Assembly (NCBI GenBank): GCA_017445025.1
Contig: JAFSVJ010000028.1
Span: forward strand, 30,707-94,706
DNA from: Abditibacteriota bacterium
Lineage (GTDB): Bacteria > Armatimonadota > UBA5829
Length of the DNA: 64,000 bases
Direction: 5' to 3'
Below the pieces are notes generated by a model. The model was not told the DNA's origin. It saw nothing but the letters and a program-made list of their open reading frames with translations, and made no database searches. Positions within the stretch are counted from its first letter, which is position 1. Each line of letters begins with the position of its first letter. Position numbers and translations under genes: made by a program. Positions 4,211 through 64,000 of the stretch are shown piece after piece.

Positions 4211-4405
4211 TTAATTCTTGAAAAAAGATGCTCTGTCAAAACAGGTCTCTCCATACCCCTCTAACCCTATCATTCTTAAAATGTCACTATTCCATATTAG
4301 GGTTATTGTATCTATTTTGGCTTCGGCTCCTTTGGCAATAAATTTTACCAAATATTGTTTCGTTACGGAGATTATCTCCTTTTCATTTTCGTTTTTTGTT
4401 GACAT
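4211..4405 (-). CDS. small hypothetical protein (64 aa), paralog-like to 15070..15213
   Basis: Preceded by RBS GGAGGTGA. It sits immediately downstream (minus sense) of repeat R1. A C-terminal segment NSDILRMIGLEGYGE resembles VSDLFGSKVVELMGE in the 47-aa gene that follows repeat R2. Confidence 0.45.
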   Translation of the reverse strand: MSTKNENEKEIISVTKQYLVKFIAKGAEAKIDTITLIWNSDILRMIGLEGYGETCFDRASFFKN

Positions 4406-4435
4406 AGCGTCACCTCCGATTTAAATATTTTGGTT

Positions 4436-4545
4436 AAGGTTTTTCCCCTTCCATATATATATAGTCATATTTCCACCCAAAATTGCCATTTTTTCAAAAA
4501 ATTTTTTTTAAAAAAAGTGATACCATGTTTTCACATAGTATCACT
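4436..4545. repeat. ~110-bp direct repeat R1 (terminator hairpin plus putative promoter module); second copy at 15321..15446
   Basis: Shared core ccttccatatatatatagtcatatttccacccaaaattgccattttttcaaaaaa plus gataccatgttttcacatagtatc in both copies, with small indels. Confidence 0.8.
4508..4543 (-). terminator. putative rho-independent terminator for the island-1 operon (inside repeat R1)
   Basis: Minus strand reads gatactatg-tgaaaac-catggtatc, a 9-bp stem with one G-U pair, followed by a U-run. Confidence 0.4.
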
Positions 4546-4635
4546 AAATAAATCTTAAATATATGAATTGTAATTGGATGATAATTTTACAATCACAATT
4601 CACATAAAGGCTTAATTTTAATATTGATAAAAATC

Positions 4636-15320: not shown

Positions 15321-15446
15321 AAGGTTTTCTTTTCTCCCTTCCATATATATATAGTCATATTTCCACCCAAAATTGCCATTTTTTCAAAAAAAATTTTTAA
15401 ATATTTTTTGACAAAAAAAAAGATACCATGTTTTCACATAGTATCT
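15321..15446. repeat. direct repeat R2 (copy of 4436..4545)
   Basis: Same core sequence and hairpin as R1. Confidence 0.8.
15411..15445 (-). terminator. putative rho-independent terminator downstream of dxs (inside repeat R2)
   Basis: Minus strand: 9-bp stem gatactatg/catggtatc, 6-nt loop, then a 9-U run. Confidence 0.45.
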
Positions 15447-18843: not shown

Positions 18844-18962
18844 TTTACAGAATGCCTCCTATAATATATTTATGTAATCTTTCGTAAAAGATTTCACACC
18901 ATTTATATTATACCACTTTTTTTATATAATGTCAAGTCTTAAAATACTTTTTTTATAAAAAA

Positions 18963-21718: not shown

Positions 21719-21822
21719 ATTTAAACCTTCCGGATATTTAAAATCTTGCTATAATATTATACCACTTTTTGGGATTTTTTTCAAATCTTAAACTTTTATT
21801 ACTTTTAAGGGCAGGCACTTAT

Positions 21823-24538: not shown

Positions 24539-24685
24539 TTATTTATACCTTATCTTGCTTTATCTATAATCCCTCAGAAAGAAAACTGAGGGAGAATTGA
24601 AATTATACCATAATTATTATACCACTTTTTACAAAACTTTTCAAGTCAAAAGTTAAAAGAGATTAACTTAATATAATCAACCATA

Positions 24686-26954: not shown

Positions 26955-28079
26955 TTATGAATTTAATAACTTAAGAATAGTTTCATCATAATTATCAGTA
27001 TAATTTTTTAATACTCTCAAAAATTCTTTAAAATCAGATATTTTTTCCATTTTGCTTATGGTTATCCAATCTAAATCTTTATATTTAGCTTGAAATAAAG
27101 TTTTACTGTTTTTAGGATTTTCAAAATCATATTTAATAATGCCTATACCAAAGGCATTATTTAATCTTTCCATTTCTTCTTGTAATTCTGGTTTATCATC
27201 AATTTCACTTGCAACCAAATATCCTTCATTTGCCCAACTTGAATTTGATACTGCTTGAAAATATGATTTCTTTAAATCCCCAAGAGTTAATGATTTCTTA
27301 AGTTCAAAAGAATAAATAGTGCAAGGAGCATTAGACATTTTTTTTACAAGATCTTGAGTTATATTCTCATATTTATGTGGTTTTACACCAACTATATCCG
27401 GATTCATCCATTCAAAATCCCCTTTTTTACCATTACTTTCTTGAATTCTTTTTCCATAAACATTAAATTTAACTTTTAAATACTCTATAAATGGCATGTA
27501 CATATCTTTTTCATCAAATTTCTTTTTTTCTATAATATGAAATTCTGCTTGTTTATTATCATTATTAAAATATCTTAATTTAAATTTAGCTTCATCAACT
27601 TTGACAAATTCAGAATTATCACCATTATTCTTAATATCTTCATATATAGGAGTTGATAAAGTATCTATAGGATTTTTACTTTTGGTATTTAGTTTTTTGT
27701 CATAACCTTTGTTAACACCGTAAGCCCAAATATCATTTATGTGTGTTGGCTCATTATTTAATTCGGTTAAAACTTCTATGGCAAAATCTTTAAATGTATA
27801 TTTGTTATTATTATAAAGAGGGTTTAGAGAGAATTTCCCTTTATCTATTTGAATAAATTCGGAGTTTTTTCCTTTCTTTTTTATATCTAAGTATAATTGG
27901 GCAGAAATAGTTGCTTCCGGAGTTTTACCGATATTTTTAAGTTTCTTGTGAAAATCCCGAAATACTCCTTGCTCCCAAATTTCCTTAGCAGTTAATATTT
28001 GATTTGAAGCTTTTAAAGTTTCTCTTGCAAAATCCTTGTAAGTATATGCCATTTTATAATCTCCTTTAAAATGTATCAA
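26955..28079 (-). CDS. tandem HARE-HTH domains + C-terminal PD-(D/E)xK-like nuclease domain (restriction-endonuclease-like), island 2
   Basis: Two repeats containing GKTPEATISAQLY / NPIDTLSTPIYEDI that resemble the HARE-HTH of RNAP delta and restriction enzymes. The C-terminal region has NPDIVGV ... YSFELKKS (PD ... ExK). The start overlaps the upstream gene stop by 14 nt. Confidence 0.55.
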   Translation of the reverse strand: MIHFKGDYKMAYTYKDFARETLKASNQILTAKEIWEQGVFRDFHKKLKNIGKTPEATISAQLYLDIKKKGKNSEFIQIDKGKFSLNPLYNNNKYTFKDFAIEVLTELNNEPTHINDIWAYGVNKGYDKKLNTKSKNPIDTLSTPIYEDIKNNGDNSEFVKVDEAKFKLRYFNNDNKQAEFHIIEKKKFDEKDMYMPFIEYLKVKFNVYGKRIQESNGKKGDFEWMNPDIVGVKPHKYENITQDLVKKMSNAPCTIYSFELKKSLTLGDLKKSYFQAVSNSSWANEGYLVASEIDDKPELQEEMERLNNAFGIGIIKYDFENPKNSKTLFQAKYKDLDWITISKMEKISDFKEFLRVLKNYTDNYDETILKLLNS

Positions 28080-31000
28080 AATTTATAATATTACTTTCAT
28101 CCTTTGGCTGGAATTTTTCTCTTATAAATTGTTTGATATTATCCGGTAAATTATATTTTTCCATTAGTTTTTCATTAATTTTATCGATTGATGAATCCCA
28201 CCAAATTTCTGAAAAATCTTGTCTCGGTATAGCTTGCCAACAAGAGGTGCTATGCTGATTCTTTTTATTTACATATAATAAAGCTCTAAAAAACTGAGTC
28301 ATAAAGTATTTAGCACATTTTTTGACAAGATCTATATCGTCAGAAGGGCACACTTCTAAGTAGGTTTCTAAACATGCTTCGTTGGGATAGGCAATAATAA
28401 TATCTGCAAATTGCCCTCCTAAATGTGTATGTTCTGACATATTCCCCCATGCATATGGAACATAGAGCTTATATTTATTAATATTTTCAATCTTAGGTTT
28501 CTCAGGGAACTTATAAGAGTCAGAAATATACTTTATTTGATTTTTAGGACCATATATTTTTATATTATATCCATTTTGCTTTTTATCTAGTAAATTATCT
28601 TTATAATTAGGTATGGATGAGAACTTTGTTCCTATTCCATATTGATTTCTGTTTGAAATAATATCTACACATTTATTACTTTTCTTTATGCTTTCAAAAC
28701 CATCAAAGTTAGAAATAATATTTGATAAATCTATTATTTCTTGAGGTTTTGAAACTTTGGATTCATATAATAATTTCTTTATATCGGGATTCTTACCTTC
28801 TGTAAATATCTTTTGTTTACCATCTAATTTATTATCAGATCCATATATCCAAAGTATTATATTTGTCCATTCTGCTCCTGCTACTCCAGTAAAGACATTA
28901 TGTCTATTATCTATACACTTAATTTGTTTATCTTCTTTTATTTCCGGTTTATTCATAAATTGAAGATTATTTTTATTTTTTGGTTCTTGCCAACCAACGG
29001 GGAATATTAAAGAGACATATTCCCCTAATATAATAGACTGCAAATAGAAAAATGGATATATTTGCATATGATGACCCATTTGATATGGTGGATTGCCTAC
29101 TATTGCTTCAAATTTCATACTTTTTTTTCCTTTAACTAAACTTGTATTCAAATCTATTTCATTAAATATCTTTTTTTGACATAGTAATTCTTTTACTTTG
29201 TCATAATCTATAGTTTCTTTTTTACCTTTATTCTTTTTTACTTTTAATAAATCGTAAGTATTAAATTTCTCTGCTATATTCTCTATTGGTAACCCCAAGC
29301 ATTCATAGACTTTTCTTGTAAATTCATAAGTTAATGAAGAGGTTGGTATTGAGTATATCATTTTTTTATATTTTTCCTTAGGTATGTTTAACTCTTCATA
29401 TTTTTCAACAATAGCAATAGCAAATTCACCTATTTTGGAAGCTATATCTAATATAGGATTTTTAAAATCATTTATAGGTAAATCTTTTATCATTTCTTTA
29501 CATATACTTTGGGGAGTGACAATTTCTGAAATGCCAAGCCTACTGAATTTAGTTAAAGCAACTTTTGCTCGTTCAATTGGGCTTAGACTGTCATCGTGAG
29601 ATAAGTTATTCATATTTCTTATTTTTTGATCTAAATCACGAATAATTATTGAATTTAATTTGGAATTTAGTTGTTCTAAATTTTCTTTCTTTAAATTAAT
29701 ATTTTTAGCGATTCTTTTATTATCACAAGTATCATCTATTTTAGATATTATATCACTTAAAGTTTTAACTTTACTTTTAGTTAAAAAAGCAAAGATTAAA
29801 ATTCTTGAATAATAAGCTCTGACTTTATCTTCAAAAGCGTCTTTTTCTTTTTTTGGAGGTTCCGCAGATGTGTCGCTTGTATCTCTTTTTTCTTTTGTTG
29901 AAGGGTCTATGTCTTTGCCTTCCCCTTCTCCTTCGTGTGCATTAAAGCTCAATCCTTCTTTAGAATTTAACCCTTTTTCTTTATTGATAAAATCCAAATC
30001 TTTTAATGAGGCATCTATACTAATTTCGTCAACTTCTTCTCTAATCCCCCTTTCCTTTGAGTATTTGCTAACATAATTCATAACATTATCCGGAGTAACT
30101 TTCTCGATTTTATCATTATTGATAACAAACATAGGGGAGAGATCAAAATCTTTTTCAATTCTTTTTTTAATATCACAATCTTTCTCATCTTTAACAACAT
30201 TATATACAAAAGCTTTTTGCTCTTGTAAAGTAAACATTCTATAAGGATTAAAATCTACTAACAGAGTTTGAGGCTTTTTATTATCTTTAATTATATTATT
30301 GTTTTTATCTATAAATATCTTAACATTTTGATTTTGTAATCTAAAAATAGCTTGGTCGTATTCTTGTGGTGAAGATGTATCCTTTAGAAAAATCATTGTG
30401 TCCCATTGTGGCACTGTTGAACCGGTTAACATTCTGTTAACCGTTAAGGTTAAAGTTTTTGAATCTTCTTTTGTTTTTATTTTATTTTTGATAGCATTTG
30501 TATTCTTATATTTATTATCTAAACCGGCAATATTTATAATTTCATAGTCTTTTAGCTTATTAAACTTGCATTTATTATTATTTAATAAATCTTCGAGAGC
30601 GTCACAAGAAGCCTTATATGGTAAAACACAGACTATGTGTTGACACATTTTCCCTTCTTTAATTGGATCATAATTTAAAAAACTAAAAATATTATCGTCA
30701 TCTTTAGAGCCATCTATAGCTTGAAAGAGTTCTAATACTTCTTTCTCAAATTTAAACTTTTTATATTCTCCTTTTTTATCTATACTTTCAGGTCTTAATA
30801 AATCGTTTAATGTTCCTAATTCACCTTTACTTTTTAATTCTTCCATTTTCTTTAAGGAAGATTCATTTGGATTAAAACCAAACCTAATCATTTCCGGGAA
30901 ACCGAAATAGGGATTATCCCATTCTTCTATATTATCTTTATTTAAATTTTTTTTATCCCATTCGTTTTTTGCTTCAATGATATCAGAATATTGATATTTT

Positions 31001-32058
31001 GCTATAATTTTTTCTTCTTCTTCAAATTCACTACTCATTAATATTCTGTAAGGAGTTCCGGATAAATGTAGTTTTATGCTACACTTTAATTTTTTATTTA
31101 TTATTTCTTTAGCTTCATTTGGATCAAAATAGTCTTCATCTTTTCCGGACGGTATTTTTTCACTATATTTTTCTGCACGTGCTCCAAAGTGAGTCTCATC
31201 AATTATCAACAGGTCAATGTTTTTTTCTAATAATTCTTTGTGCTTATCCTTTACATTTTCGCCTTGTAAATCTTGTAAAGTCAGAAAAATCACTACACGA
31301 TTTTTATCTTTCTTATTTAATACTTTTTTTATTTCACCATCTGACTTTTCTAAATCATGTGAAGTTAAAAATTCGTAATCGCTAAAATTTTCAGCACTTT
31401 GGACGGTTTTTCTCCATTCATCTTTAACATCTGCTTTTGCGGAAACAATAACAACTATTTTTGCACAAATAGCTTTTGCACAGCATAAAGCAGTAAAAGA
31501 TTTTCCAAATCGCATTACAGCATACATAAGTAGATTCGTTTTGTAATTAGATACTGCATCTATAAATTTTAGAACAGTCTCTTCTTGATTTGGTCTTAAA
31601 CTCCACGTTCCGGTAGATGCATATTTTGTTTTGATTTTTCCTTTATCTTTTAGGCTATATATATCATACGAATCAGAATTATCTTTTATATGTTGTATTG
31701 CTTTATCTATATCTTCTTCATTTACATTTTCAAAAAATTCATTAGAATAATAAGCTTCATGATTTATTTCTTCTAATTTTTTTTCGGTTAAACGTGTCTT
31801 ATCATTATTTTCTAAAAATTGATGAACAGAATAATCTCTAAAATATTTATCGTTATCTTTTAATACAGCACTGTGTTCAGATAATTTCTCAAGATTCGGG
31901 AATATATCTCTCCATTGCTTAAGTCTAACATTTACTCCTTGGGTTGTGTCACCGACTTTAGTATAATTGGGAATAGTCTCAGTTGTAAATGAATATATAT
32001 ATGGTTCTTTATATCCTGTTATAACTTCATCAATTTTAGTAGTATCAATTTTAGACAT
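28066..32058 (-). CDS. multidomain protein: GIY-YIG-like N-terminus + DExH SF2 helicase (type III res-like) + gamma-class N6-adenine MTase-like domain + C-terminal TRD-like region (Type ISP-like), 1330 aa
   Basis: N-terminus YIYSF...YTKVGDT...R, GIY-YIG-like. Helicase motifs I (RFGKSFTA), II (IIDETHFG) and III (LSGTP). MTase motif X (IVTPQSICKEMI), degenerate motif I (ILDIASKIGEF) and motif IV (IVGNPPYQ). Confidence 0.7.
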   Translation of the reverse strand: MSKIDTTKIDEVITGYKEPYIYSFTTETIPNYTKVGDTTQGVNVRLKQWRDIFPNLEKLSEHSAVLKDNDKYFRDYSVHQFLENNDKTRLTEKKLEEINHEAYYSNEFFENVNEEDIDKAIQHIKDNSDSYDIYSLKDKGKIKTKYASTGTWSLRPNQEETVLKFIDAVSNYKTNLLMYAVMRFGKSFTALCCAKAICAKIVVIVSAKADVKDEWRKTVQSAENFSDYEFLTSHDLEKSDGEIKKVLNKKDKNRVVIFLTLQDLQGENVKDKHKELLEKNIDLLIIDETHFGARAEKYSEKIPSGKDEDYFDPNEAKEIINKKLKCSIKLHLSGTPYRILMSSEFEEEEKIIAKYQYSDIIEAKNEWDKKNLNKDNIEEWDNPYFGFPEMIRFGFNPNESSLKKMEELKSKGELGTLNDLLRPESIDKKGEYKKFKFEKEVLELFQAIDGSKDDDNIFSFLNYDPIKEGKMCQHIVCVLPYKASCDALEDLLNNNKCKFNKLKDYEIINIAGLDNKYKNTNAIKNKIKTKEDSKTLTLTVNRMLTGSTVPQWDTMIFLKDTSSPQEYDQAIFRLQNQNVKIFIDKNNNIIKDNKKPQTLLVDFNPYRMFTLQEQKAFVYNVVKDEKDCDIKKRIEKDFDLSPMFVINNDKIEKVTPDNVMNYVSKYSKERGIREEVDEISIDASLKDLDFINKEKGLNSKEGLSFNAHEGEGEGKDIDPSTKEKRDTSDTSAEPPKKEKDAFEDKVRAYYSRILIFAFLTKSKVKTLSDIISKIDDTCDNKRIAKNINLKKENLEQLNSKLNSIIIRDLDQKIRNMNNLSHDDSLSPIERAKVALTKFSRLGISEIVTPQSICKEMIKDLPINDFKNPILDIASKIGEFAIAIVEKYEELNIPKEKYKKMIYSIPTSSLTYEFTRKVYECLGLPIENIAEKFNTYDLLKVKKNKGKKETIDYDKVKELLCQKKIFNEIDLNTSLVKGKKSMKFEAIVGNPPYQMGHHMQIYPFFYLQSIILGEYVSLIFPVGWQEPKNKNNLQFMNKPEIKEDKQIKCIDNRHNVFTGVAGAEWTNIILWIYGSDNKLDGKQKIFTEGKNPDIKKLLYESKVSKPQEIIDLSNIISNFDGFESIKKSNKCVDIISNRNQYGIGTKFSSIPNYKDNLLDKKQNGYNIKIYGPKNQIKYISDSYKFPEKPKIENINKYKLYVPYAWGNMSEHTHLGGQFADIIIAYPNEACLETYLEVCPSDDIDLVKKCAKYFMTQFFRALLYVNKKNQHSTSCWQAIPRQDFSEIWWDSSIDKINEKLMEKYNLPDNIKQFIREKFQPKDESNIINFDTF

Positions 32059-33289: not shown

Positions 33290-33650
33290 CGGTGGTGTTG
33301 TTGGCTTAGATTGTTAGGCTTCTATCTCGCAAGCGAGTGAATACATAAATTTGCAATTCTATGCAAATTTATTCCTGACCACCCACCACAATCCAAATCC
33401 CTAAAAGTTTCGCACGGCCCCCCCACGGGAAAATCAAAGATTTTCCTCGTAGCCCCCCTAAAGGGGGTTCATTGATAGAAAAGCGAAACTTTTTGGGATT
33501 AGGGCAAGCAGTTGTCGTTTTTACAAAAAAGCGATGCTTTTTTGCCGCAATTCAACCTTGGATGAAAGGAATTTGCGGTTGCAAATTCAGTTCAAGGAGG
33601 GTGAGTGCCTACAATTCACCCCCAAACCTATGGTTTAGGGGAGAGAGAGA
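33290..33650. repeat. GC-rich mosaic interspersed repeat copy, related to 48230..48470 (inverted), 60170..60262, 34560..34680, 38380..38660 and 49268..49393
   Basis: tctatctcgcaagcgagtgaatacataaatttgcaattctatgcaaatttattcctgaccacccacc recurs as its reverse complement at 48393..48460. GC palindromes such as cccccaaacctatggtttagggg are present. Confidence 0.6.
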
Positions 33651-37941: not shown

Positions 37942-38295
37942 TTAATCGTGATAACCAATGTTTACATAAAAACAATGGTCAGGGACATCCATTCTTCCAA
38001 ACTGGCAAACAATAGGCACATCACTTATTACTTTTACAGAATAATGAGTGTCATTGGGAATAGAAAAGCCAAAGAGATCTTCCTTGTGATCCATACGCAA
38101 GGCCTTCATTTTCTCTGCGGGCACCACATACTTCAAACCTTTCACCGGTTCTCTGTCTTCAAAATGAAGACTAACCTCAACATGAGCTTCCTCACCATTA
38201 GGGTTGAAGAATAAGAGAGACTCATGTGCATCAACTTTCTCTGTTTTACAAGGCAAGTATCCATCAGGATAACACCAAACTTTACTACCTATCAT
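37942..38295 (-). CDS. ASRT-family protein (sensory rhodopsin transducer-like, PF07100-like)
   Basis: W..DGYLP...HE..L..N..EAHV...HF.DR.PVKG...VPA..M.ALR.DH....IP......V.SD.PIV.Q..R.D pattern, matching the Anabaena ASRT / Thermotoga TM1070 family. 117 aa. Confidence 0.65.
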   Translation of the reverse strand: MIGSKVWCYPDGYLPCKTEKVDAHESLLFFNPNGEEAHVEVSLHFEDREPVKGLKYVVPAEKMKALRMDHKEDLFGFSIPNDTHYSVKVISDVPIVCQFGRMDVPDHCFYVNIGYHD

Positions 38296-38379: not shown

Positions 38380-38660
38380 TTTTATCTTGAGTATAAAAAT
38401 TCCAAATTCCACAAAAATCTCTAATTTTTTATTACGAAAATCTCTTCGCTCCTTAACCTACGATTTTTTTATAGACGCATAAAACCCTAAGCCCAAATCC
38501 CAAAAAGTTTTGCAAGCTCAACTTTTCGGGAACCCTTGGGCAGCACCCAATTTCTTCATAAATACACTACGGTGAAATTTTACTTCGTAAAATTCCATTT
38601 ATTTTGAAATTGTGGCTTATGGACGGCTAAAGCCTTTTTATTTGCTTAATAAAAAAATCT
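38380..38660. repeat. interspersed repeat copy (modules ttccaaattccacaaaaatctctaatttttt and aaaagttttgcaagctcaacttttcgggaacccttg)
   Basis: Related to 43720..43790, 44060..44130, 48040..48090 (inverted), 48308..48345 (inverted) and 49296..49340 (inverted). Confidence 0.5.
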
Positions 38661-38730
38661 TGTTATAGTCGCTTGATATTTTCTATAAAAAATTGATCTT
38701 TTCAGTTCTTTGGGATTTTTATACTCGCTT

Positions 38731-39084
38731 TTATTCAAAATAAGGTGTATTTACATAATATGAGTAATCACCTACATCAAGTCTGCCAAATTGAGATACT
38801 ATTTTTATATCCGATTCAACTTTTATTGAATATTGAGTTAAGGGAGGTATCTCATAACCGGCTGTATCCTCTTTGTGGTCAAGTCTTAAAGTTTTAACTC
38901 TTTCCGCTCCCACAGTTACTTTAATACCCTTTACAGGGTCCCTGTCAGAAAAATAAATATCAATAGTCACATGAGCTTCCTTATTATTTAAATTTAAAAG
39001 CATTAAAGCTTCATGACAATCAATACCATTTGCCTTTTCCGGAAGATACCCGTCGGCAAATACCCAAATCTTCTTTCCTACCAT
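38731..39084 (-). CDS. ASRT-family protein (second copy)
   Basis: Paralog of 37942..38295 with the same conserved pattern. 117 aa. Confidence 0.65.
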   Translation of the reverse strand: MVGKKIWVFADGYLPEKANGIDCHEALMLLNLNNKEAHVTIDIYFSDRDPVKGIKVTVGAERVKTLRLDHKEDTAGYEIPPLTQYSIKVESDIKIVSQFGRLDVGDYSYYVNTPYFE

Positions 39085-41427: not shown

Positions 41428-42597
41428 CTAAAATTCTGAAAGCATCTTTCTGATTAAAGGAGTTAAACTTTCCACACCCTTATCTGTAATAAGTAAACTT
41501 TCCTCCACTCTGTTACCGTATATTTCAGGGATACCAAAGAGAGAAATATCTGTATTCACTGTCATATTATTTTCAAATAACCTTGAAGAATTCTCATCGG
41601 GATATGGATCTTCAGCTTCAGCCAAACCTATACCGTGCATGGGAGGATAAATATCATATTTGTCAAGTCCTTTCTTTCTAAAGAAATTACGAACGGCTTT
41701 CACCATTTCTGCCATAGGCTCCCCTACAATCATCTTACTCATAGCAATATTTGAGCCTTCCACCAAGGTCTTTATAAAATCTCTTTGTTTATCACTCATT
41801 TTACCCACAACAAAAGGCATCTCGGCAGTAGAAACATAACCTTCATACTGAACAGCTATAGCTGCCATTACCATGTCCCCATCTTCTAAAACCTTATCCG
41901 TATCTCGACCTATAACCGTATTAATTCTTTCACCGGAACCTACAACCGAAAAAGTTATGTTTTCCGCTCCTGCCATTCTTGCTGCTCCTTCACAAGCACC
42001 GGTCATATATCTTTCTGTCTTTCCCGGTATAGCATTAGCGAGAAGAGCTTCATAACCCACACAAGCAAGTCGTCCGGCTTCCCGAAGACATGCTATTTCA
42101 TTAGGTGTTTTTACAAGTCTCATTTTATTGATAATATCACTTACATCCACAATTTCAATACCATCTATGGCTGTAGCAATTCTATTATAAATAATGCCGG
42201 GCATATCATTAATTCCCACAACACCTAATTTCTTTCCTCCTGCCAAAACATCTCCTATAAGCTCCTTAAAATCACTTATAACCGCAAGAGGATAATCTAT
42301 ATCATCCACAACCGTGACACAAAGAAATTCCTTAAGATTTACAACTTTATAAGGACACATTTCCTTTGCATAAGGTTCTCCCTCCGGAGCACCTGCATAA
42401 ATAGGCTCTCCTTCCTTTGGAATAAACAAGGCTCCTCTTTCAAATATAGGCCAGAAATTAGATACATAACGAAGATTTTCTTTTCTGTACTCATCTCCGT
42501 AAACCATAATGGCATCAATGCCACACTTTACCATCTCTGTTTTAATTTTACAAATTCTTTCCTTAAATTCTTCAAACGGAATACAAATTTTAGACAT
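41428..42597 (-). CDS. M24-family metallopeptidase (Xaa-Pro aminopeptidase / creatinase-fold)
   Basis: Creatinase/prolidase-like N-terminal domain and a C-terminal HGIGL...E metal-binding region. Confidence 0.6.
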   Translation of the reverse strand: MSKICIPFEEFKERICKIKTEMVKCGIDAIMVYGDEYRKENLRYVSNFWPIFERGALFIPKEGEPIYAGAPEGEPYAKEMCPYKVVNLKEFLCVTVVDDIDYPLAVISDFKELIGDVLAGGKKLGVVGINDMPGIIYNRIATAIDGIEIVDVSDIINKMRLVKTPNEIACLREAGRLACVGYEALLANAIPGKTERYMTGACEGAARMAGAENITFSVVGSGERINTVIGRDTDKVLEDGDMVMAAIAVQYEGYVSTAEMPFVVGKMSDKQRDFIKTLVEGSNIAMSKMIVGEPMAEMVKAVRNFFRKKGLDKYDIYPPMHGIGLAEAEDPYPDENSSRLFENNMTVNTDISLFGIPEIYGNRVEESLLITDKGVESLTPLIRKMLSEF

Positions 42598-42671
42598 TTT
42601 TATCTCCTTTAATTATATTCATGAACTCTGTCCACCTCGTAAATAATGCAGAATGCAAAATGCATTTTTCA

Positions 42672-43682
42672 TTATTTACAAGAGCCTCTCACAACCAATT
42701 TAGGCTCCATTATTATCTTTTTTAAAGGATAATCTTTATCTCGTAAAGATTTTATAAGCAAATCAGCTGCCATTTCCCCTATATGCATATAGTTCTTACC
42801 ATAGGTGGTCACTATTGTAGTTAAATTGATTCTTCGCAGTTTTGCCATTTCACTGTCGTCTATGCCTAAAACACTGACTTTTTCCGGGATAGATATTCCT
42901 TTTTCGTCCAGCGCTTCCATTACTCCCACTGCCACGTTATCACTTATACAAAAAACTGCGGAAAAATCAAGATTTTGCCATAAAGCTTGTTGGATAGCAT
43001 TGTATCCATCCTTTATATAAATACCGCCATTAATAAAATATTTCTTTCCAAGCTCAATACCCTTAGTTTTCAAATATTCTTTTGAAGTATCATTAAACAA
43101 CTTAAAAGATTTAAAATGTTCTTCCTTCTTACTGCCATTTATAAACAATATTTTTTCATGACCTAAGGACAGAAGATAATCAAGCCCTGTCTTCACTATA
43201 CCTGTCATATCCTCTATAATATAATGGCTGTTAACATTAGGGGGTTCAGAGTCCACACATACAGTCGGAAGAGATTTTGATATTCTGCTGAGTAAATCAT
43301 TTTCTCGTTCACAAGCACAAACTATAAGTCCGCAAGCCTGAAATTCAATAAGTTGTGTCAAAGCTTCCTTTTCTTTTTCCAAATCTCTGTAGGTAGAAAA
43401 AATCATTACCTTATAACCCACATCGGATAAATACCTTTCCGCGTTGGTCACTATTTCTTGCATGAAAGGAGTATCAAACTCTGATACGACTATTCCTACC
43501 AAGTTACTGCTTCCCTTTTTTAATATCTGGGCGATTTTATTGGGAAAATAACCATGCTTTGAAGCTATTTCCAAAACTTTCTTTCTTGTATTTTCGGATA
43601 TACGAGATTTTTCTTTAAAACACAAACTTACGGTTGTTGCCGAAACACCGGCCAATTTCGCTATTTCATTTACAGTAATCAT
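42672..43682 (-). CDS. LacI-family transcriptional regulator
   Basis: N-terminal HTH MITVNEIAKLAGVSATTVSLCF plus a periplasmic-binding-protein-like sugar-binding domain. Confidence 0.85.
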   Translation of the reverse strand: MITVNEIAKLAGVSATTVSLCFKEKSRISENTRKKVLEIASKHGYFPNKIAQILKKGSSNLVGIVVSEFDTPFMQEIVTNAERYLSDVGYKVMIFSTYRDLEKEKEALTQLIEFQACGLIVCACERENDLLSRISKSLPTVCVDSEPPNVNSHYIIEDMTGIVKTGLDYLLSLGHEKILFINGSKKEEHFKSFKLFNDTSKEYLKTKGIELGKKYFINGGIYIKDGYNAIQQALWQNLDFSAVFCISDNVAVGVMEALDEKGISIPEKVSVLGIDDSEMAKLRRINLTTIVTTYGKNYMHIGEMAADLLIKSLRDKDYPLKKIIMEPKLVVRGSCK

Positions 43683-43923
43683 AAAATTTATTTTTTGTCT
43701 CTAAAAAATGTATTTATTATTAAATTATAAAATTCTAAATTCCCTAAAAATCTCTAATTTTTTGCTTAACGAAATATCTCTTGTCTTACCAACCCTGACG
43801 CTCATTCGTCTTGAAACAAAATAGCTTCGGATTGCGTCCTTGCTCTTTTGCTCCAATACTCATTCGCTACGGGCGGTGACGACAATTCGCTATTTCTTGC
43901 AAAAAATTAATCTTTTTGGTAAT

Positions 43924-44019
43924 TTATAACTTTATAATACGAGATTTTTCTTTAAAACACAAACTTACGGTTGTTGCCGAAACACCTGCCAATTTCGCTA
44001 TTTCATTTACAGTAATCAT
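43924..44019 (-). pseudogene. 31-aa HTH-only fragment copy of the LacI-family regulator N-terminus
   Basis: Manual translation gives MITVNEIAKLAGVSATTVSLCFKEKSRIIKL then a stop. It is identical to the regulator N-terminus up to residue 27, with one synonymous change. Confidence 0.55.
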
Positions 44020-44257
44020 AAAATTTATTTTTTGTCTCTAAAAAATGTATTTATTATTAAATTATAAAATTCTAAATTCCCTAAAAATCTCTAATTTTTT
44101 GCTTTACGAAATAACTCTTGTCTTATCTCCTTGACATTCGCTCGTATAAGAACAAATCTCTTTCGGCTACGCCTCACATCTTTGCCCTTCTACTCACTCA
44201 TTACAGTCGAAGACGACAATTCGCTATTTCTTGCAAAAAATTGATCTTTTTGGTAAT

Positions 44258-44353
44258 TTATAACTTTATAATACGAGATATTTCTTTAAAACACAAACTT
44301 ACGGTTGTTGCCGAAACACCTGCCAATTTCGCTATTTCATTTACGGTTATCAT
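44258..44353 (-). pseudogene. second 31-aa HTH-only fragment copy of the LacI-family regulator N-terminus
   Basis: Manual translation gives MITVNEIAKLAGVSATTVSLCFKEISRIIKL then a stop. Confidence 0.55.
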
Positions 44354-44380
44354 AGTTTTTACTCTTTTAAAAGTTTTTTA

Positions 44381-45847
44381 TTATATTTCTGTCACTTTTA
44401 TATTCATAATTTCTGCCAATTTGATCAGTTGACTCTTGCAATCACCATGACAAACTATTACATGGTGGGTGACTCCCACCTTATGAAGTTTTGCCACAAA
44501 TTCTTTAACAGGTCTCTTAACTTCTACAAGAGCATGGATTTCATTACAAGGCAAAGTGGGATAATCTAAGGATTTACCACTGCTTACAAGCATTTGCCAA
44601 CCTTCACTTGTATTCAGCAAATGTCCCATGGTCACCGGTCCCGGTTTAAATATAAACTCCATATTACAACCGGTTCCCTCAAAACCCCACTCTTCCGGAG
44701 CTGTGGTAAGAGATATATCTTTCTCACTCTTAGCGTTCTTTGTGCCGGCTACCCCGTGACCTACCAAAAATATGGCATTATGAGATAAGTCATATTGCCC
44801 CCACTCGGCTTGAAGAGGCACATTTCCGGTTAATTTATACATCATCTGCATCATACAAAGACCTGCAAGGTCACCTTCACTTGCCACAATATTATCCGGC
44901 TTATCCATAATCATGGAAGCACCGATTCTTGCGGGAGCACCTGTTTCTTTTTCAATAAAATGTTGACCTAAAAAACAAAGACTGTCAAGCCTATACTTAT
45001 CAATAAGATCTTTCATAGCCAAGCCAAGCTTAACACTTTTTACAATATCATCCGATTTAACACCGCGGACATTAAAACGAGCTGCAAATTTTCTTGCTTC
45101 TTCTTCCGCATCACTATCCTTAACCTCTTTCCATAATCTCAAAAGATGTGATAATTCAACATAGATAATGTTAGGACCCAATGTGCCCTTGATTTTGGTT
45201 TTGTCATTTTCAAGGTCATACATTCCTCTAAATACGTGACCCACAACACCTACATTTAAATTTCTCAAATCCTTGACAATTTTAAGAAGTGTCACATATT
45301 CATCTATTTCTTCAAAACATACACCTTCTTCAAGAGAACCCACAATTACATCATAATTCTCTTTCCCCATCTTTTTAAAAGAGCCGGAAAGCTGTGTGGT
45401 TCCTATAAGTGATGAGTTTTCCATCATAACTTCATAGTCGTCTTGCGGGGTAATATCGTTATATGCTTGAACGTCAAACAATAATATGGGAACATCTCTG
45501 TTATAATCTATAGCTTGCATAGAAATATAATCAGGCACATAAGTTCCTTCACATACTATTATAAGGTCTACCTTTTCATCTCTGAAAATTCTTCCCACTT
45601 CATCAGCTTTATCAAGAGTATCTACTATTTTAGGAAATATTACCGTATTATTCTCTTTAAGTTTTAAGGCTATTTTGTTTAAAAGATTTTCCACATTTTC
45701 TTTAAACCGGGGAGAGAACATTCTCCAATATTCAAAATATCCGCATGCCAAAAATCCTATTTTAAATTCACAAGGTTTTGTTTTTTCAGACAATAAATCG
45801 CCAAACACATTACCTATTCCACTTTCAAAAGATAAAATTTCGTCCAT
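44381..45847 (-). CDS. sugar isomerase of the L-arabinose/L-fucose isomerase superfamily (putative)
   Basis: About 490 aa. The N-terminal KIGFLACGYFEYW...VDLIIVCEGTYVPD region resembles AraA/FucI-like isomerases. The family assignment is tentative. Confidence 0.45.
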   Translation of the reverse strand: MDEILSFESGIGNVFGDLLSEKTKPCEFKIGFLACGYFEYWRMFSPRFKENVENLLNKIALKLKENNTVIFPKIVDTLDKADEVGRIFRDEKVDLIIVCEGTYVPDYISMQAIDYNRDVPILLFDVQAYNDITPQDDYEVMMENSSLIGTTQLSGSFKKMGKENYDVIVGSLEEGVCFEEIDEYVTLLKIVKDLRNLNVGVVGHVFRGMYDLENDKTKIKGTLGPNIIYVELSHLLRLWKEVKDSDAEEEARKFAARFNVRGVKSDDIVKSVKLGLAMKDLIDKYRLDSLCFLGQHFIEKETGAPARIGASMIMDKPDNIVASEGDLAGLCMMQMMYKLTGNVPLQAEWGQYDLSHNAIFLVGHGVAGTKNAKSEKDISLTTAPEEWGFEGTGCNMEFIFKPGPVTMGHLLNTSEGWQMLVSSGKSLDYPTLPCNEIHALVEVKRPVKEFVAKLHKVGVTHHVIVCHGDCKSQLIKLAEIMNIKVTEI

Positions 45848-47827: not shown

Positions 47828-47855
47828 ATATTTTACACTTATATTTTAATTATTT

Positions 47856-47889
47856 ACTATACACTTATATTTTATCATATTTACAAATA
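47856..47889. repeat. 34-bp direct repeat ctatacacttatattttatcatatttacaaatat (second copy 48151..48184) bracketing a ~260-bp repeat-element insertion
   Basis: Two identical copies read directly from the sequence. Confidence 0.7.
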
Positions 47890-47894
47890 TAAAA

Positions 47895-48085
47895 TTACAA
47901 AGGACCGAAAAGATCATTTTTTTGCAAGAAATAACGCATTGACGTCTTCGACTGTAATGAGTGAGTATTGAAGCGATTTTTAAGGCACACGCCATTAAAA
48001 ATTGTTTCAAGACGAAGGAATGTCAAGGAGATAAGTCAAAAGTTATTTCGTTAAGCGAAAAAATAGAGATTTTCGAGGAATTTGG
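47895..48085. repeat. inverted copy of the ~190-bp element found at 43720..43915 and 44060..44255
   Basis: The reverse complement matches ttc(c)aaattcc..aaaaatctcta...cttatctccttgacattc...tactcactcattacagtcgaagacg...tatttcttgcaaaaaa.tgatctttt. The sequence is mosaic between the two direct copies. Confidence 0.7.
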
Positions 48086-48229
48086 GATTTTATATTTAAA
48101 TTAATGCATCTCTAACTAAAAAAAATATTGATATTGAAAAATCATTATTTCTATACACTTATATTTTATCATATTTACAAATATTTTTCAATCCAAATCC
48201 ATGCCACTTTCCACCCGTCAATACTTTTT

Positions 48230-48470
48230 TCGGAAATGGGTTTTAGGGGTGAAAAAAAAGCCTCAGTGGTTAGACTCACCCTCCTTGAACTGAAAATTGC
48301 ATCCGCAATTTTCCTTTCATCCAAGGGTTTCCAAAAAGTTGAGCTTGCGAAACTTTTAGGGATTTGGAAGGAGGGGGGACCGGCGAAGACGGTGGGTGGT
48401 CAGGAATAAATTTGCATAGAATTGCAAATTTATGTATTCACTCGCTTGCGAGATAGAAGTTATATATCTC
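48230..48470. repeat. GC-rich mosaic repeat copy (inverted relative to 33290..33480)
   Basis: ggtgggtggtcaggaataaatttgcatagaattgcaaatttatgtattcactcgcttgcgagataga is the reverse complement of 33300..33366. It also carries caagggtttccaaaaagttgagcttgcgaaactttt (inverted module B). Confidence 0.6.
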
Positions 48471-52872: not shown

Positions 52873-53637
52873 TTATCCACACAAGTCACGGTTAATCCAG
52901 TGTGTATTCCACCACCAAGCAACAGAGTTATACATTATATCACTGTTGTATTTAGAATATTTGGCGTGACCGTCAGCAAATGTAATGTTTACACCATCCA
53001 TGTGGGGGTAAACCTTTGCGGCTTTTGCACCGGAACCAACATAGTCAGCAGCATAAGCTTGCATAACAGAAGCCTGTGTAGAACCTAAACCATACCAATA
53101 TCTGTCAATAAGCATAACAAATTCGGAAGAGGTTGGGATTTGAGTTTCCGTTAGAGGAGGTCGGCAGTGCCAAGTTAGGTATCCTTCCATTGAAATACAT
53201 AAGTGTCCTGAAATTTCTGCATTATAACCGTATGAGGGCTTATTTGTAGTTATATTTTTATTTAATGCAGGGTTGGAAGGACAACGAAACATTTGAACAT
53301 TCTTGACATAAGGGAATATAGAATCCATCCATGTGAAACGTGCCTCTGCTCCTGTTGCATCACATTGGGCAAAGAAAATCTCACCCGGGTAACCGGCAGT
53401 GGCTGTGGTGATAAGATTTCCTGCACCACAATCATACTGACAATCAGCAGGGTATGTTTCGTCGTAATCGTCTTTGTATAACATAAAAGCAGTTCCCATT
53501 TGCTTCATGTTAGAGAGACAACTTGTTTGTCTTGCTTTTTCTCTTGCCTGTGCAAACACAGGGAAAAGAATGGCTGCGAGTATTGCTATAATGGCTATAA
53601 CAACAAGCAACTCAATTAAGGTAAAACCTTTCTTCAT
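52873..53637 (-). CDS. DUF1559 / H-X9-DG protein with prepilin-type N-terminal cleavage-methylation domain (pseudopilin-like)
   Basis: [27 protein letters not shown]-terminus. C-terminal H-x9-DG motif ([12 protein letters not shown]). Confidence 0.75.
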
Positions 53638-53796
53638 TATTTTTCTCCTGTTTATATTTTAGTTTATCGTTAAACCTACATATATATTATACCATAAAAA
53701 AAAATAAAAAGTCAAGGTTTAAACCTTATTTTTTTTAAAAAATCAAAAAAAACATCCAAAAAATAATTAATCTAAGGGAAATGTTTTAGATATTTT

Positions 53797-55089
53797 TCAT
53801 TCGGCATATAACAGAACACCGTGGCCGGGCATTATATAAACATCTTCTCCTCCAAAAGATTTTACATCTCCTCCTGTGCTTCTGTCTTCAACTTTAAATA
53901 TCTTATTTCCTTTGTTAAACTCTATTCCTACCGCAACAGAATAATCGGGGTTTTTATTTACTATCATGGCATACTGTTTGCCGGCTTTATCCACAAATTC
54001 TTGGGCAACCACATTAGCTTCACCTCGTAAAGGAGACAAGGAAAGATTTTTAACATTTATGGCACTTGACTTATCTTTACAACCCTTTGGAACATAACCC
54101 ATATGAAAAACATTAATATTTTTTAAGCTTTTGTATATAGCACCTATATTATGAATGGCATAATTCATGTGGGCAACATATCTCCATGCGGGAGACTTCA
54201 TATTATATTCATCATAAGGAGCGTTTCTCCAATTTCCGAGATTGGGGGTTTGGTATGTAAAATAAGATATACCTTTGGCACCGTAAGCAAGAGAAGACCA
54301 ACCTTGAACGTGAATAATATAATCGTCCGGGTCCGGCCAACTTAAAGCACCTACGGATTGAATTATATTAATAAAACCTACCCTATTTATGTCGGCACCT
54401 TTTTTAATGGCCTCAAGGTTTGAATAAAAATAATTTTCGTTAAAATTATAGTTGCGAACACTGTTTGTATAGCCTACAGCATCCGGATTGTTTCCGACAG
54501 AAAAAGAATAATTATCATAGGAAATATAGTCCAATTTACAACTCTGTGTAATGGTATCAATATATTTATCATAGCTTTCTACTCCCAATCCTGCAGGAGA
54601 CACTGCTATAGGATAAAGATTTATATAGGGTTTACATTTACAGCTTTCTCTAACGGCATCTGCGTAAGCTGAAAGCCTTGCAACTGTATCTTCTCTGGCA
54701 TTGGGTTCATCTTGCACATAAACCATATACAAATCATCCAAATTATTTTTACCTACTTCCTTAATCACTCTTTTTGTAAAGTTTTGTGCCTTTGTTGCGT
54801 AATCTGCGTCACTTTCACCGGTAGAATCCACAAAAACATGAGCTTTTAAATTATGTTTCTTGGCGAATTTAACTTCAGTGGGAGGAATAAAGTGTGTCAC
54901 ATTAAATCCACAGTCATACATATCTTTAAAATATTCATCTCTTTGAGTGTTATTGGTCCACCAATAATGGCCCCAGGGCATAATAAGAAATTCATCGGGA
55001 GTTAATCTTTGTCGTGTAGTGTCGGTAAAGTCTGCATAAGCAGAAATTGATATTATCAAAACTGCCAATAAAAATATTATTTTTTTCAT
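53797..55089 (-). CDS. secreted hypothetical protein (430 aa), tandem paralog of 55128..56420
   Basis: Signal peptide. Long collinear identity with the neighbouring gene (e.g. DDYIIHVQGWS.LAYGAKG, RYVAHMNYAIHNIGAIYK). Confidence 0.5.
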   Translation of the reverse strand: MKKIIFLLAVLIISISAYADFTDTTRQRLTPDEFLIMPWGHYWWTNNTQRDEYFKDMYDCGFNVTHFIPPTEVKFAKKHNLKAHVFVDSTGESDADYATKAQNFTKRVIKEVGKNNLDDLYMVYVQDEPNAREDTVARLSAYADAVRESCKCKPYINLYPIAVSPAGLGVESYDKYIDTITQSCKLDYISYDNYSFSVGNNPDAVGYTNSVRNYNFNENYFYSNLEAIKKGADINRVGFINIIQSVGALSWPDPDDYIIHVQGWSSLAYGAKGISYFTYQTPNLGNWRNAPYDEYNMKSPAWRYVAHMNYAIHNIGAIYKSLKNINVFHMGYVPKGCKDKSSAINVKNLSLSPLRGEANVVAQEFVDKAGKQYAMIVNKNPDYSVAVGIEFNKGNKIFKVEDRSTGGDVKSFGGEDVYIMPGHGVLLYAE

Positions 55090-55127: not shown

Positions 55128-56420
55128 TTATTCCGCAAACAGCAAAACTCCATGGCCGGGGGCAACCATGGCTCCTTCACCATAGAAAAAAGTCACCTGA
55201 TTGCCGGCTCCTCTGTCATCTATCTTATAAACATCCTTGCCTTTTTTAAATTCTATTGATACTTCAACAGAATAGTTAGGGTTTTTATTTACTATCATAG
55301 CATATTGTTTTCCGTCTTTATCCACAAATTCACCCACAACAGCATTAGCTTCCCCTTTAACGGATTTCAATGACAGATTTTTAATATTAACGGCACTTGA
55401 CAGATCTTTACAACCCTTAGGAACATAACCCACATGGAAAACATTTATGTGTTTTAAATTTTTATAAATTGCACCTATATTATGAATGGCATAATTCATG
55501 TGAGCCACATATCTCCATGTGGGAGATTTCATATTATATTCATCATAAGGGGCGTTTCTGTAATCACCAAAATCAGGAGTTTGATAAGTATAATAGCACA
55601 AACCCTTGGCGCCATAGGCAAGAGTAGACCAACCTTGAACATGGATAATATAATCGTCCGGCTCCGGCCAATTAAAGGCTTCCACAGATTGGATAATATT
55701 TATAAAACCAACTTTATTCCTATCGGCGGCAGCCTTGACAGCTTCCATATTGCCATAAAAAGAGTTCTCGTTAAAGCAATAGTTTTTATTACTGTTGGTC
55801 CAACCTTCCTTTTCCTCATTGTCAACAACAAATGGATAGTTATCATAAGAAATATACTCTAATGAACATTCTTTTATTAATTTATCCAAATATTCATCAT
55901 AACCGCCATAGGGATAGGCAATAATGGGTAAAAGGTTTATGTATGGTTTACATTTACAGTTTTCTCTGACAGCATCTGCATAAACTGATAATTTGGCAAT
56001 ATTTTTTTCATCATCGGTAGGTTCGTCTTGAAGATAGACAAAATATACATTATCCATATTCTCTTTGCCTACTTCATCTATAATTTTTTGTGTCCATCTT
56101 TTAGCTTTGGTTTTATTATCATCTTCACTGTTATCGGTCTGCCTAACATACACCTGAGCTTTCATTTTATATTTTTTGGCAAGAAGAACTTCATTGGGAG
56201 GGCACATATGTGTCACATTAAAACCACAGTCGAACATATCTTTATAATACTTCTCTCTTTCCCCGGTTCCGCTCCACCAATAATCACTAAATGGCATAAT
56301 GATAAACTCATCGGGAGTTAATCTCTCTCGAACTCTGTTTGTCGAATCTGCATAAGCAGAACCTGCTACTATTATTATAAATATAAGAAATATAAAAATT
56401 TTTTTCATAAAAAACTCCAA
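55128..56420 (-). CDS. secreted hypothetical protein (430 aa), tandem paralog
   Basis: See the paralog above. Possibly a glycosidase-like TIM-barrel, unconfirmed. Confidence 0.5.
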   Translation of the reverse strand: MEFFMKKIFIFLIFIIIVAGSAYADSTNRVRERLTPDEFIIMPFSDYWWSGTGEREKYYKDMFDCGFNVTHMCPPNEVLLAKKYKMKAQVYVRQTDNSEDDNKTKAKRWTQKIIDEVGKENMDNVYFVYLQDEPTDDEKNIAKLSVYADAVRENCKCKPYINLLPIIAYPYGGYDEYLDKLIKECSLEYISYDNYPFVVDNEEKEGWTNSNKNYCFNENSFYGNMEAVKAAADRNKVGFINIIQSVEAFNWPEPDDYIIHVQGWSTLAYGAKGLCYYTYQTPDFGDYRNAPYDEYNMKSPTWRYVAHMNYAIHNIGAIYKNLKHINVFHVGYVPKGCKDLSSAVNIKNLSLKSVKGEANAVVGEFVDKDGKQYAMIVNKNPNYSVEVSIEFKKGKDVYKIDDRGAGNQVTFFYGEGAMVAPGHGVLLFAE

Positions 56421-63366: not shown

Positions 63367-64000
63367 TGTTACAAAAAGTTAAAAAAGGATTTACCTTAAT
63401 CGAGTTGTTGGTAGTTATAGCAATTATTGCTATTTTAGCTGCCATTTTGTTCCCTGTATTCGCACAGGCAAGAGAAAAAGCAAGAGCATCTTCTTGTTTA
63501 TCTAACTTAAAACAAATAGAAACTGCTTTGCAGTTATACACAGACGATTACGACGAAACATACCCTATAAGAATTGATGGTGGAGCAGCATGGGATCCTA
63601 CAGGTCAAGCAGCTTACCCAAGATTTTGGCTTGCCGGTGAAACTCAAGACTGGACTGTTGCAGGAAACGCTCGATGGTGGACGTGGATGGACAGCCTTTA
63701 CCCATATGTAAAGAACTCTCAAATGTATGTTTGTCCTTCTATCGGAAATAAAGTAGGTTCTTACGGATACAACCCATTTATGAATGGTTTCCACTGGAAA
63801 AACAACGAAGCTGTTTCTATGAGCGAACTTAAAATGCCATCTGAAACCGTATTTATCGGTGATGGTCTTGTTAACACAGATTCTAAACTTTTAATCTCTG
63901 TTCTCGGTGCTCACATGTGTGGTGCACAAGAATGGGGTGGCGCATGGAAAAACGGTAAGAGACACAACGGCGGTTCCAACTTCTGCTTTGGTGACTCTCA
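63367..64000 (+). CDS. DUF1559 / prepilin-type N-terminal methylation-domain protein (pseudopilin-like), C-terminally truncated by window end
   Basis: [40 protein letters not shown]. Paralog of 52873..53637. Confidence 0.75.

Follow-up and report, generated by a model that had tools for sequence, protein, structure and literature searches.

A structured hairpin element and duplicated gene ends at a LacI-family regulator locus in an uncultured Abditibacteriota bacterium

In DDE transposition the duplications that flank an insertion are typically a few bases long. Cis-mobilizable elements (CIMEs), which are reduced to att sites and lack recombination genes, lie in tandem with relatives at one att site; the known ones are kilobases long and derive from integrative and conjugative elements (ICEs) or integrative and mobilizable elements (IMEs). 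Islands that replace the 5' end of dusA are flanked by repeats of the target-gene end, reconstitute the gene and leave displaced scars (PMC4482086), and successive integrations leave arrays of several partial tRNAs (10.1101/2020.12.28.424599). Prokaryotic MITEs (miniature transposable elements with inverted repeats) and palindromic repeats (ERIC, Correia, RUP, RPE) are shorter than 500 bp, non-coding, AT-rich, dispersed and mostly intergenic; terminal inverted repeats bound them, and the RNAs transcribed from them form stable hairpins (PMC10969869). Here we describe an array at the start of a LacI-family regulator gene in a 64-kb stretch of DNA (the window) from contig JAFSVJ010000028.1 of an uncultured Abditibacteriota bacterium, which belongs to a population known from gut metagenomes. 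The array contains a non-coding, structured sequence that we call element E. We found no description of an E-like element in the literature.

The LacI array and the fold of its inserts

Three direct copies of the 5' end of the regulator gene lie on the minus strand, their starts separated by 334 and 337 nt. Read along that strand, the order is a 488-aa gene of the sugar-utilisation operon that precedes LacI, a 27-nt spacer, copy X3, a 251-nt insert, copy X2, a 254-nt insert and copy X1, which is the start of the intact gene. The duplicated segment is 83 nt long (the ATG to codon 27, plus 2 nt), pairwise identity among the copies is 95-99%, and the junction CTCGTAT/TATAAAG is present two times. 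An earlier interpretation made from the letters alone (the sequence-only reading) had described a tandem 338-bp repeat holding the first ~27 codons of the regulator, with few differences between copies, a GCC/GCA change among them, and a third, partial unit. The copied codons, the GCC/GCA difference (copy comparison) and three direct copies are all there, but the duplication is not a simple one, as hairpin element E lies between the copies. Units A and B are 98.3% identical in their left flank and 98.1% in their right flank plus tail, where differences are indeed few, but their 86-89-nt cores are only 61.5% identical, which is not the uniform divergence expected of a simple tandem duplication. 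Tandem Repeats Finder called no tandem repeat at the locus because the cores are too divergent. Nor was the repeated material copied from the gene's own upstream region: E also occurs at two other sites in the window (Table 1) and at a tRNA-Met gene in another assembly. The LacI array is two copies of a small dispersed hairpin element, not a plain duplication.

What had been taken for a partial third unit is X3. It differs from X1 and X2 by two synonymous changes, in codons 2-3 adjoining the tail, and is nearly identical to them beyond. In a related species (L008 and L009), the LacI orthologue, at 69% amino-acid identity, is uninterrupted and follows directly after the 488-aa gene, and its region contains no E-like upstream sequence and no 31-aa fragment. 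The start of the orthologue in L008 is ATGATAACA, that of X3 is ATGATAACC, and that of X1 and X2 is ATGATTACT. Because the orthologue resembles X3, not X1 or X2, X3 is, on this comparison of sequences, the native LacI 5' end, displaced by insertion.

Each E is a rod-like imperfect hairpin of ~205 nt, behind which comes a tail of roughly 45-70 nt that is specific to the locus. We folded single strands of the LacI-sense strand. Core hairpins A and B had folding energies of -43.3 and -39.5 kcal/mol (z = -5.2 and -4.8), and the opposite strand folded much more weakly. When the fold was extended, nearly the entire insert formed a single rod of ~205 nt (z = -7.7); between it and the ATG lies the A/T-rich tail of 44 nt. 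The base of the hairpin is formed by imperfect inverted ends of ~27 nt; E begins with TAAAATTAC and finishes with GGATTTTA, its ends also being given as TAAAATTACAAAGGACCGAAAAGATCA and GGGATTTGGAATTTTA. Within the fold is a ladder of 2×2 internal loops (5'-GA/5'-GA), spaced by two base pairs that differ between units.

A covariance model (R1) was built from six distinct E copies, in whose hairpins 94% of the cells are paired. Two-sided changes are present in 29 of the 60 pairs, compared with 13.8 ± 2.4 in shuffles (none of 500 reached 29) and 3-11 in slid controls; ~15 cells are G-U and none is A-C. In all six copies, including copy C, which lies in the opposite orientation, the element strand folds better than its complement, by 5-27 kcal/mol. 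Taken together, the covariation and the strand-biased folding indicate that a single-stranded form of one defined E strand, either RNA or single-stranded DNA (ssDNA), is under selection.

The 5' boundary of E is constant within ±2 nt across loci. At the window's E-like copy between two ASRT-domain genes, orthologues from two samples are 100% identical except for an internal sub-hairpin of ~85 nt, which differs in sequence and keeps the same pairing; judged from such alignments, the apical parts of E are exchanged or diversified far faster than its base. Several samples share an identical core A, and several an identical core B (equal covariance-model scores); the cores therefore represent discrete alleles rather than continuous hypermutation.

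A search of Rfam 15 returned no match at an E-value ≤ 1 in positions 42500-45500, and across the window and L003, a second assembly of the same population, the only match at gathering level was a tRNA. A scan of the locus for sigma-70 promoters and terminators gave no excess of sites over shuffles. We rejected a coding role for the core, since the open reading frames (ORFs) that cross cores A and B are on inspection unconserved and in different frames. A guide role like that of a bridge RNA was rejected as well: matches between core and target reach at most 5-9 nt, and cores match their cognate target no better than they match other targets.

Table 1. Positions in the window of the LacI array, the other copies of E and their flanking features
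Feature	Position	Strand	Basis
Intact LacI-family regulator gene, 336 aa	42672..43682	-	Pfam LacI and Peripla_BP_1/3/4; ORF list
Direct-repeat copy X1, first 83 nt of the intact LacI gene	43600-43682	-	Copy comparison
Tail of unit A, 44 nt, A/T-rich, between hairpin and LacI ATG	43683..43726	-	
Element E copy A, extended imperfect hairpin of ~205 nt	43727..43936	-	Fold z = -7.7; covariance-model match 204.7 bits
Variable core of E copy A	43789-43877	-	
31-aa ORF MITVNEIAKLAGVSATTVSLCFKEKSRIIKL, opened by X2	43924..44019	-	ORF list; NCBI annotation MBQ7256624.1
Repeat copy X2 of the LacI 5' end	43937-44019	-	Copy comparison
Tail of unit B, 44 nt as in unit A	44020..44063	-	
Element E copy B, hairpin architecture as in copy A	44064..44270	-	Core-hairpin z = -4.8; covariance-model match 198.7 bits
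Variable core of E copy B, 61.5% identical to core A	44126-44211	-	
31-aa ORF ending KEISRIIKL, opened by X3	44258..44353	-	ORF list
Copy X3, native displaced LacI 5' end by sequence comparison, 27 nt past the stop of the upstream gene	44271-44353	-	
Upstream 488-aa gene, Fucose_iso_C-like, sugar-isomerase-like	44381..45847	-	Pfam
Direct repeat DR1, AKR-promoter site	47854..47890 (44 nt from 47847 if one indel is allowed)	+	Repeat search
Element E copy C, orientation opposite to the LacI copies	47889..48093	+	Covariance-model match 225.1 bits; fold z = -8.0
Tail of copy C, ~50 nt, unrelated to other tails	48094-48147	+	
Direct repeat DR2, AKR-promoter site	48148..48184	+	Repeat search
E-like copy between two ASRT genes	38394..38721	-	Covariance-model match 49.3 bits, E = 4e-9

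Element E at other sites and in other samples

A repeat search of the whole window together with the covariance model identified four copies of E. Copy C sits upstream of an aldo-keto reductase (AKR) operon, where a 37-nt direct repeat in the promoter region (44 nt with one indel) brackets the hairpin and a tail of ~50 nt. In sample ERZ28019071 this site is empty and has one repeat without the element; the filled and empty alleles differ by exactly the element, the tail and one repeat. A 7-nt match, ATTATTT, lies at the junction of tail and repeat. The E-like copy between the two ASRT genes has ends as in E and a longer, different interior that includes a 49-nt mini-hairpin ('m') at 38493-38539; its flanking repeat is possibly ~13 nt.

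In L003 (scaffold_10654, ERZ28653721), at least three tandem copies of E adjoin a tRNA-Met gene. Each unit of this array is bounded by a 32-44-nt copy of the 3' half of the tRNA, every unit has its own intrinsic terminator on the tRNA strand, and the tRNA-Met gene itself is intact. At the place where the live tRNA has CTCATAACCCGGAGG, the three fragments have derived bases in common (ATCAAAACCCGT-GG), and because these are shared the fragments are copies of one another, not fresh duplications of the live gene. Copy C and unit T1 of the tRNA array have closely similar hairpins and different tails and repeats (alignment inspection). The repeats that flank E are thus 83 nt at LacI, 37-44 nt at the AKR promoter and 32-44 nt at the tRNA 3' half. 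The tails of different loci are unrelated to one another, and the idea that a tail is a diverged copy of the duplicated target was rejected, as alignment scores are like those of shuffles (p≈0.5 for AKR and p≈0.08 for LacI).

At positions 650-2060 of L003, the scaffold links the AKR promoter and the first part of copy C, over an N gap, with the tRNA-Met/E array and dnaE, unlike the arrangement in the window and in L004, where the AKR promoter is followed by an element F and a phosphotriesterase gene. Either E copies have mediated a real rearrangement, or the scaffold was misjoined at the repeat.

The sequence-only reading had proposed comparison with other strains, and this bears the LacI array out. 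Both junctions and both cores recur in independent assemblies (L001/L003, L002 with L004, L005, and L007) from at least three other samples, and for this reason a single-assembly artefact is excluded. L007 has one unit (B), and one contig spans the complete one-unit array between both flanking genes. In the window, unit B is followed by unit A, and A adjoins LacI; in ERZ28019071, A adjoins X3 and B adjoins LacI, with an extra variant copy of the gene start (MITLNE...) and a variant tail. The single-nucleotide polymorphisms of the gene-end copies form a mosaic among samples. Several contigs end within the array, and in one scaffold it is interrupted by an N gap. Also in ERZ28019071, L004 holds at 4385-4620 a core-A unit with a diverged 3' hairpin end, whose tail begins like those of the tRNA array (ATAAACAAAAACCCGG); lying at the end of its contig, it could be a longer element.

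Searches beyond these samples found little. Exact-pattern scans gave no match in representative genomes and one in JGI metagenomes, which was the LacI locus again, and four exact patterns had no match among viral contigs. Scanning the representative genomes with the 488-aa protein returned only relatives at ≤58% identity and no close genome. ARAGORN found no tRNA in the window.

The window contains several other repeats. Repeat family F is present at 48185-48460 (+) and 33320-33650 (-), with a 69-nt 3' end that is 100% identical (GGTCAGGAATAAATTTGCATAGAATTGCAAATTTATG...); it has no Rfam match, carries the motif CTTTTAGGGATTTGGA that is also in the 3' end of E, and has copy C inserted 6 nt from its 5' end. 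The 49-nt mini-hairpin (CCAAGGGTTCCCGAAAAGTTGAGCTTGCAAAACTTTTTGGGATTTGG) lies at 38493-38539 in the ASRT-site element, at 48321-48367 in F, and on the minus strand of L003 at ~1022-1075, where it is nested in tRNA-array unit T1 between two copies of a duplicated 5-nt sequence, AATGA. Its behaviour resembles that of an independent, very small mobile hairpin with short target duplications. A direct repeat of ~105 nt (4440-4542 and 15330-15445, 85-93% identical over two ungapped blocks), which holds the terminator hairpin downstream of dxs, brackets a low-GC block of 10.9 kb encoding a DUF1413 protein, a PLD+SNF2 helicase, a GmrSD nuclease and an Eco57I/TaqI_C-type methylase. The block has the appearance of a defence island whose insertion involved a long flanking duplication and no integrase. 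A second low-GC (0.27) block resembling a restriction-modification system, at 26955-32058, encodes a HARE-HTH protein and a 1330-aa ResIII+Eco57I fusion.

Promoter-like repeats of ~40 nt precede minus-strand genes at 18898-18943, 21754-21792 and 24607-24652. As the best copy, on the minus strand, has TTGACA, a 17-nt spacer and TGGTATAAT, the organism appears to use canonical sigma-70 promoters. An inverted repeat of 194 nt, 81% complementary, has its arms 9.7 kb apart (53449-53642 and 63373-63566); with its 5' part, a DUF1559/N-methyl (type IV pilin-like) gene overlaps one of them, and the arms are probably paralogous gene starts. Tandem paralogues are found at 53797-55089 and 55128-56420 (a pair of 430-aa proteins for which Pfam gave no match, their genes 73-84% identical in nucleotides), and at 37942-38295 and 38731-39084, the two 117-aa ASRT-domain proteins (54% amino-acid identity) that have the E-like element between them.

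Explanations for the arrays

The explanation we favour, to which we give roughly an even chance, is that a small non-coding, non-autonomous, structured mobile element was inserted in the end of the LacI gene and left duplicated gene ends. Its units would act as miniature non-autonomous integrative elements: a small DNA carrying the hairpin, the tail and a copy of the gene end would recombine with the chromosomal gene end, through homologous recombination or the action of a recombinase provided in trans. Additional units would accrete in tandem, and recombination between the repeated gene ends would alter their number and order. As every unit would end in its own copy of the gene start, the downstream LacI gene would stay intact and displaced 5' ends would accumulate as scars. 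Three observations favour gene ends that travel with the element. X3 differs from X1 and X2 at two synonymous sites next to the tail and is nearly identical past them, which fits a crossover in the shared segment; the tRNA fragments share derived bases that the live tRNA lacks; and the tails of the tRNA array carry terminators oriented to serve the tRNA.

Several points weigh against this explanation. Among window ORFs of at least 150 aa, Pfam identified no integrase, transposase, reverse transcriptase or Cas1, and the units themselves encode nothing. The targets of the one E family are unrelated, number at least three and probably four, and have repeats of variable length, which is unusual for a site-specific integrase. 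The similar hairpins C and T1 lie at different targets with unlike tails and repeats, and the tails, homologous neither to each other nor to the targets, have an origin for which the model gives no account. The data come from a handful of strains with about seven distinct copies of E, and from short-read assemblies, which break or collapse in arrays, so that unit counts and orders are uncertain and identical neighbouring units would be invisible. The lack of a recombinase, the number of targets, the similar hairpins at different targets and the non-homologous tails keep two rivals alive.

The first, which we consider unlikely, is that E is a transposable element whose insertion itself makes long target-site duplications of variable length. 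Widely staggered nicks would be filled, in the manner of target-primed reverse transcription acting on a structured RNA or of Cas1-like integration, and insertions would survive only where the duplication reaches the gene end and regenerates the gene. Several unrelated targets with repeats of 32-44, 37-44 and 83 nt, and possibly ~13 nt at the ASRT site, are what this would produce, as is the exact difference between the AKR alleles. The closely similar hairpins at two targets, the strand-specific, RNA-like fold with its G-U and tandem G·A pairs, and the absence of a site-specific recombinase nearby also agree with it, and the A-rich, locus-specific tails would be as in 3' transduction. Fresh duplication sits poorly, however, with tRNA fragments whose shared bases mark them as copies of each other, and with differences among the LacI copies that cluster at one end; the well-formed terminators, oriented to serve the tRNA, suggest long adaptation to that site. 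Neither a reverse transcriptase nor Cas1 was seen in the window. We know of no bacterial precedent for long, variable target duplications made by insertion.

Slightly less probable is that ordinary homologous recombination accounts for everything and that E is a passive palindromic intergenic repeat of the ERIC or REP kind. Rare illegitimate or template-switch events would have placed E with its flanking duplications, and unequal crossing-over, gene conversion between E copies and exchange among strains would have made the arrays and their polymorphism. Unit number and order do vary as expected for recombination between 83-nt repeats, and the mosaic of gene-end polymorphisms, the conversion-like difference confined to one internal sub-hairpin between orthologous copies, and the ATTATTT match at the AKR site all suit this account. 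The 10.9-kb defence island is likewise bracketed by long repeats with no integrase. The fixed 5' boundary and the strongly conserved rod, on the other hand, point to a defined functional element and not to a product of template switching. Tails that bear terminators are left unaccounted for, and so is the distinct core in every assembled array unit, although the latter may be assembly bias.

The sequence-only reading correctly placed two 31-aa ORFs upstream of the intact LacI gene (Table 1) and offered two fates for them, inert duplication scars or short helix-turn-helix (HTH) peptides competing with the repressor. The first is close to the truth, except that the scars stem from a dispersed hairpin element and not from head-to-tail gene duplication. 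X3 and X2 each open a 31-codon ORF whose last four codons and stop are read from the 5' end of E. Both fragments keep the ATG, as had been claimed, but of the HTH region only part remains: they retain native residues 1-27, and the 46-position PF00356 domain spans residues 3-48 of the full protein (model positions 1-46), so that about half of the LacI DNA-binding domain is present and the precomputed domain match on a fragment is 'weak'. The only amino-acid changes among all copies are in truncated ones, K25I in copy 3 and V4L in another sample's copy, and the intact gene shows only synonymous differences; the counts are tiny, and such changes would fit relaxed constraint in the fragments. There is firm support for seeing the 31-codon ORFs as by-products of a dispersed structured element flanked by duplicated target; most likely they are leftover duplicated target, not new mini-proteins. 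The regulator gene is intact because the duplicated segment reaches its start. NCBI entries MBQ7256623-25 match the three proteins, and both fragments are annotated there as LacI-family regulators.

Two further readings fare much worse. That the fragments are expressed micro-proteins modulating the full repressor, with the array maintained for that reason, is very improbable: both have an ATG and an open frame, copy 3 retains its native translation-start context in the operon, and the ORFs occur in several samples and are predicted by gene callers, but a half-domain finished by four residues from the end of the element, amino-acid changes confined to the fragments, coexisting one-unit and two-unit arrays, equivalent non-coding fragments at the tRNA gene and the AKR promoter, and an uninterrupted relative with no such fragment all speak against it. 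The same half-domain, the same changes and the peptide-free fragments at the tRNA and promoter sites argue against the competing HTH peptides, an option that has no support, and nothing points to a selected function of the fragments. Expansion or chimerism of a single-copy region during assembly is hardly credible: contigs do end in the array, one scaffold has its N gap there and the repeated parts are 98-100% identical, but two diagnostic junctions and two distinct cores recur in independent assemblies of at least four samples, single contigs cover the complete one-unit array and, in the window, the two-unit array, and a core identity of 61.5% is too low for read errors.

Comparison with known systems

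Should the favoured explanation hold, gene-end-restoring integration, known from kilobase islands that carry an integrase, would extend to non-coding units of ~335 bp, and such units would accumulate in arrays within the start of a protein-coding gene without inactivating it. Public 'regulator' ORFs such as MBQ7256624.1 and MBQ7256625.1 would then represent remnants of insertion rather than genes. For Abditibacteriota, a phylum whose molecular genetics hardly exists, the gain would be a new, strongly supported structured motif: a rod of ~205 nt that has tandem G·A ladders and an apex subject to rapid exchange. We think it doubtful that the insertion chemistry of E is new; if the long repeats do arise by insertion itself, the mechanism would be new for bacteria. 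Equally doubtful is a larger claim, that E represents a new class of non-autonomous mobile element, with a rod-like RNA or ssDNA, long and variable target duplications of ~13-83 nt, a transduced tail, survival restricted to the neighbourhood of gene ends that it regenerates, CRISPR-like 'repeat-insert' arrays, and a hypervariable apex serving as a determinant of identity or exclusion.

Integrons offer a partial likeness. Their attC sites are also strand-specific folded hairpins that keep structure more than sequence and occur in arrays. The attC hairpins measure 57-141 nt, however, compared with ~205 nt for E, whose ends on inspection show no match to the RYYYAAC/GTTRRRY boxes. In the E array it is the hairpin that varies and the intervening sequence that stays constant, the opposite of the situation in an integron; neither an integron integrase nor attI turned up in the window.

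With MITEs and palindromic repeats E shares its small size, its lack of coding sequence, its inverted ends and its multiple dispersed copies. It differs in its flanking repeats, which vary from 32-44 to 83 nt where MITEs have a fixed short target-site duplication. A variable, non-homologous tail between the hairpin and the downstream repeat, a hypervariable apex with compensatory changes, and arrays at gene ends also separate it from them.

Integrative islands resemble E in that their flanking direct repeats are the end of the target gene, the reconstituted sequence is slightly unlike the displaced native end, and scars remain. Gene-end repeats with reconstitution are found for E at LacI (83 nt) and at tRNA-Met, and empty sites occur in relatives (AKR in ERZ28019071, LacI in L008 and L009). 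E units, in contrast, are only ~335 bp long and non-coding, with no integrase in the unit or the window, and the body of E is a single long hairpin; instead of the one cognate attachment site expected of an integrative family, E uses at least three unrelated targets. CIMEs likewise lack recombination genes, but E has no known parent element and its hairpin has no counterpart in CIMEs. Because its repeats are long and variable, no integrase was found and several targets are used, E falls outside the definitions of both MITEs and islands; what it combines is the size, inverted ends, dispersal and foldability of MITE- and ERIC-like repeats with the gene-end repeats of islands.

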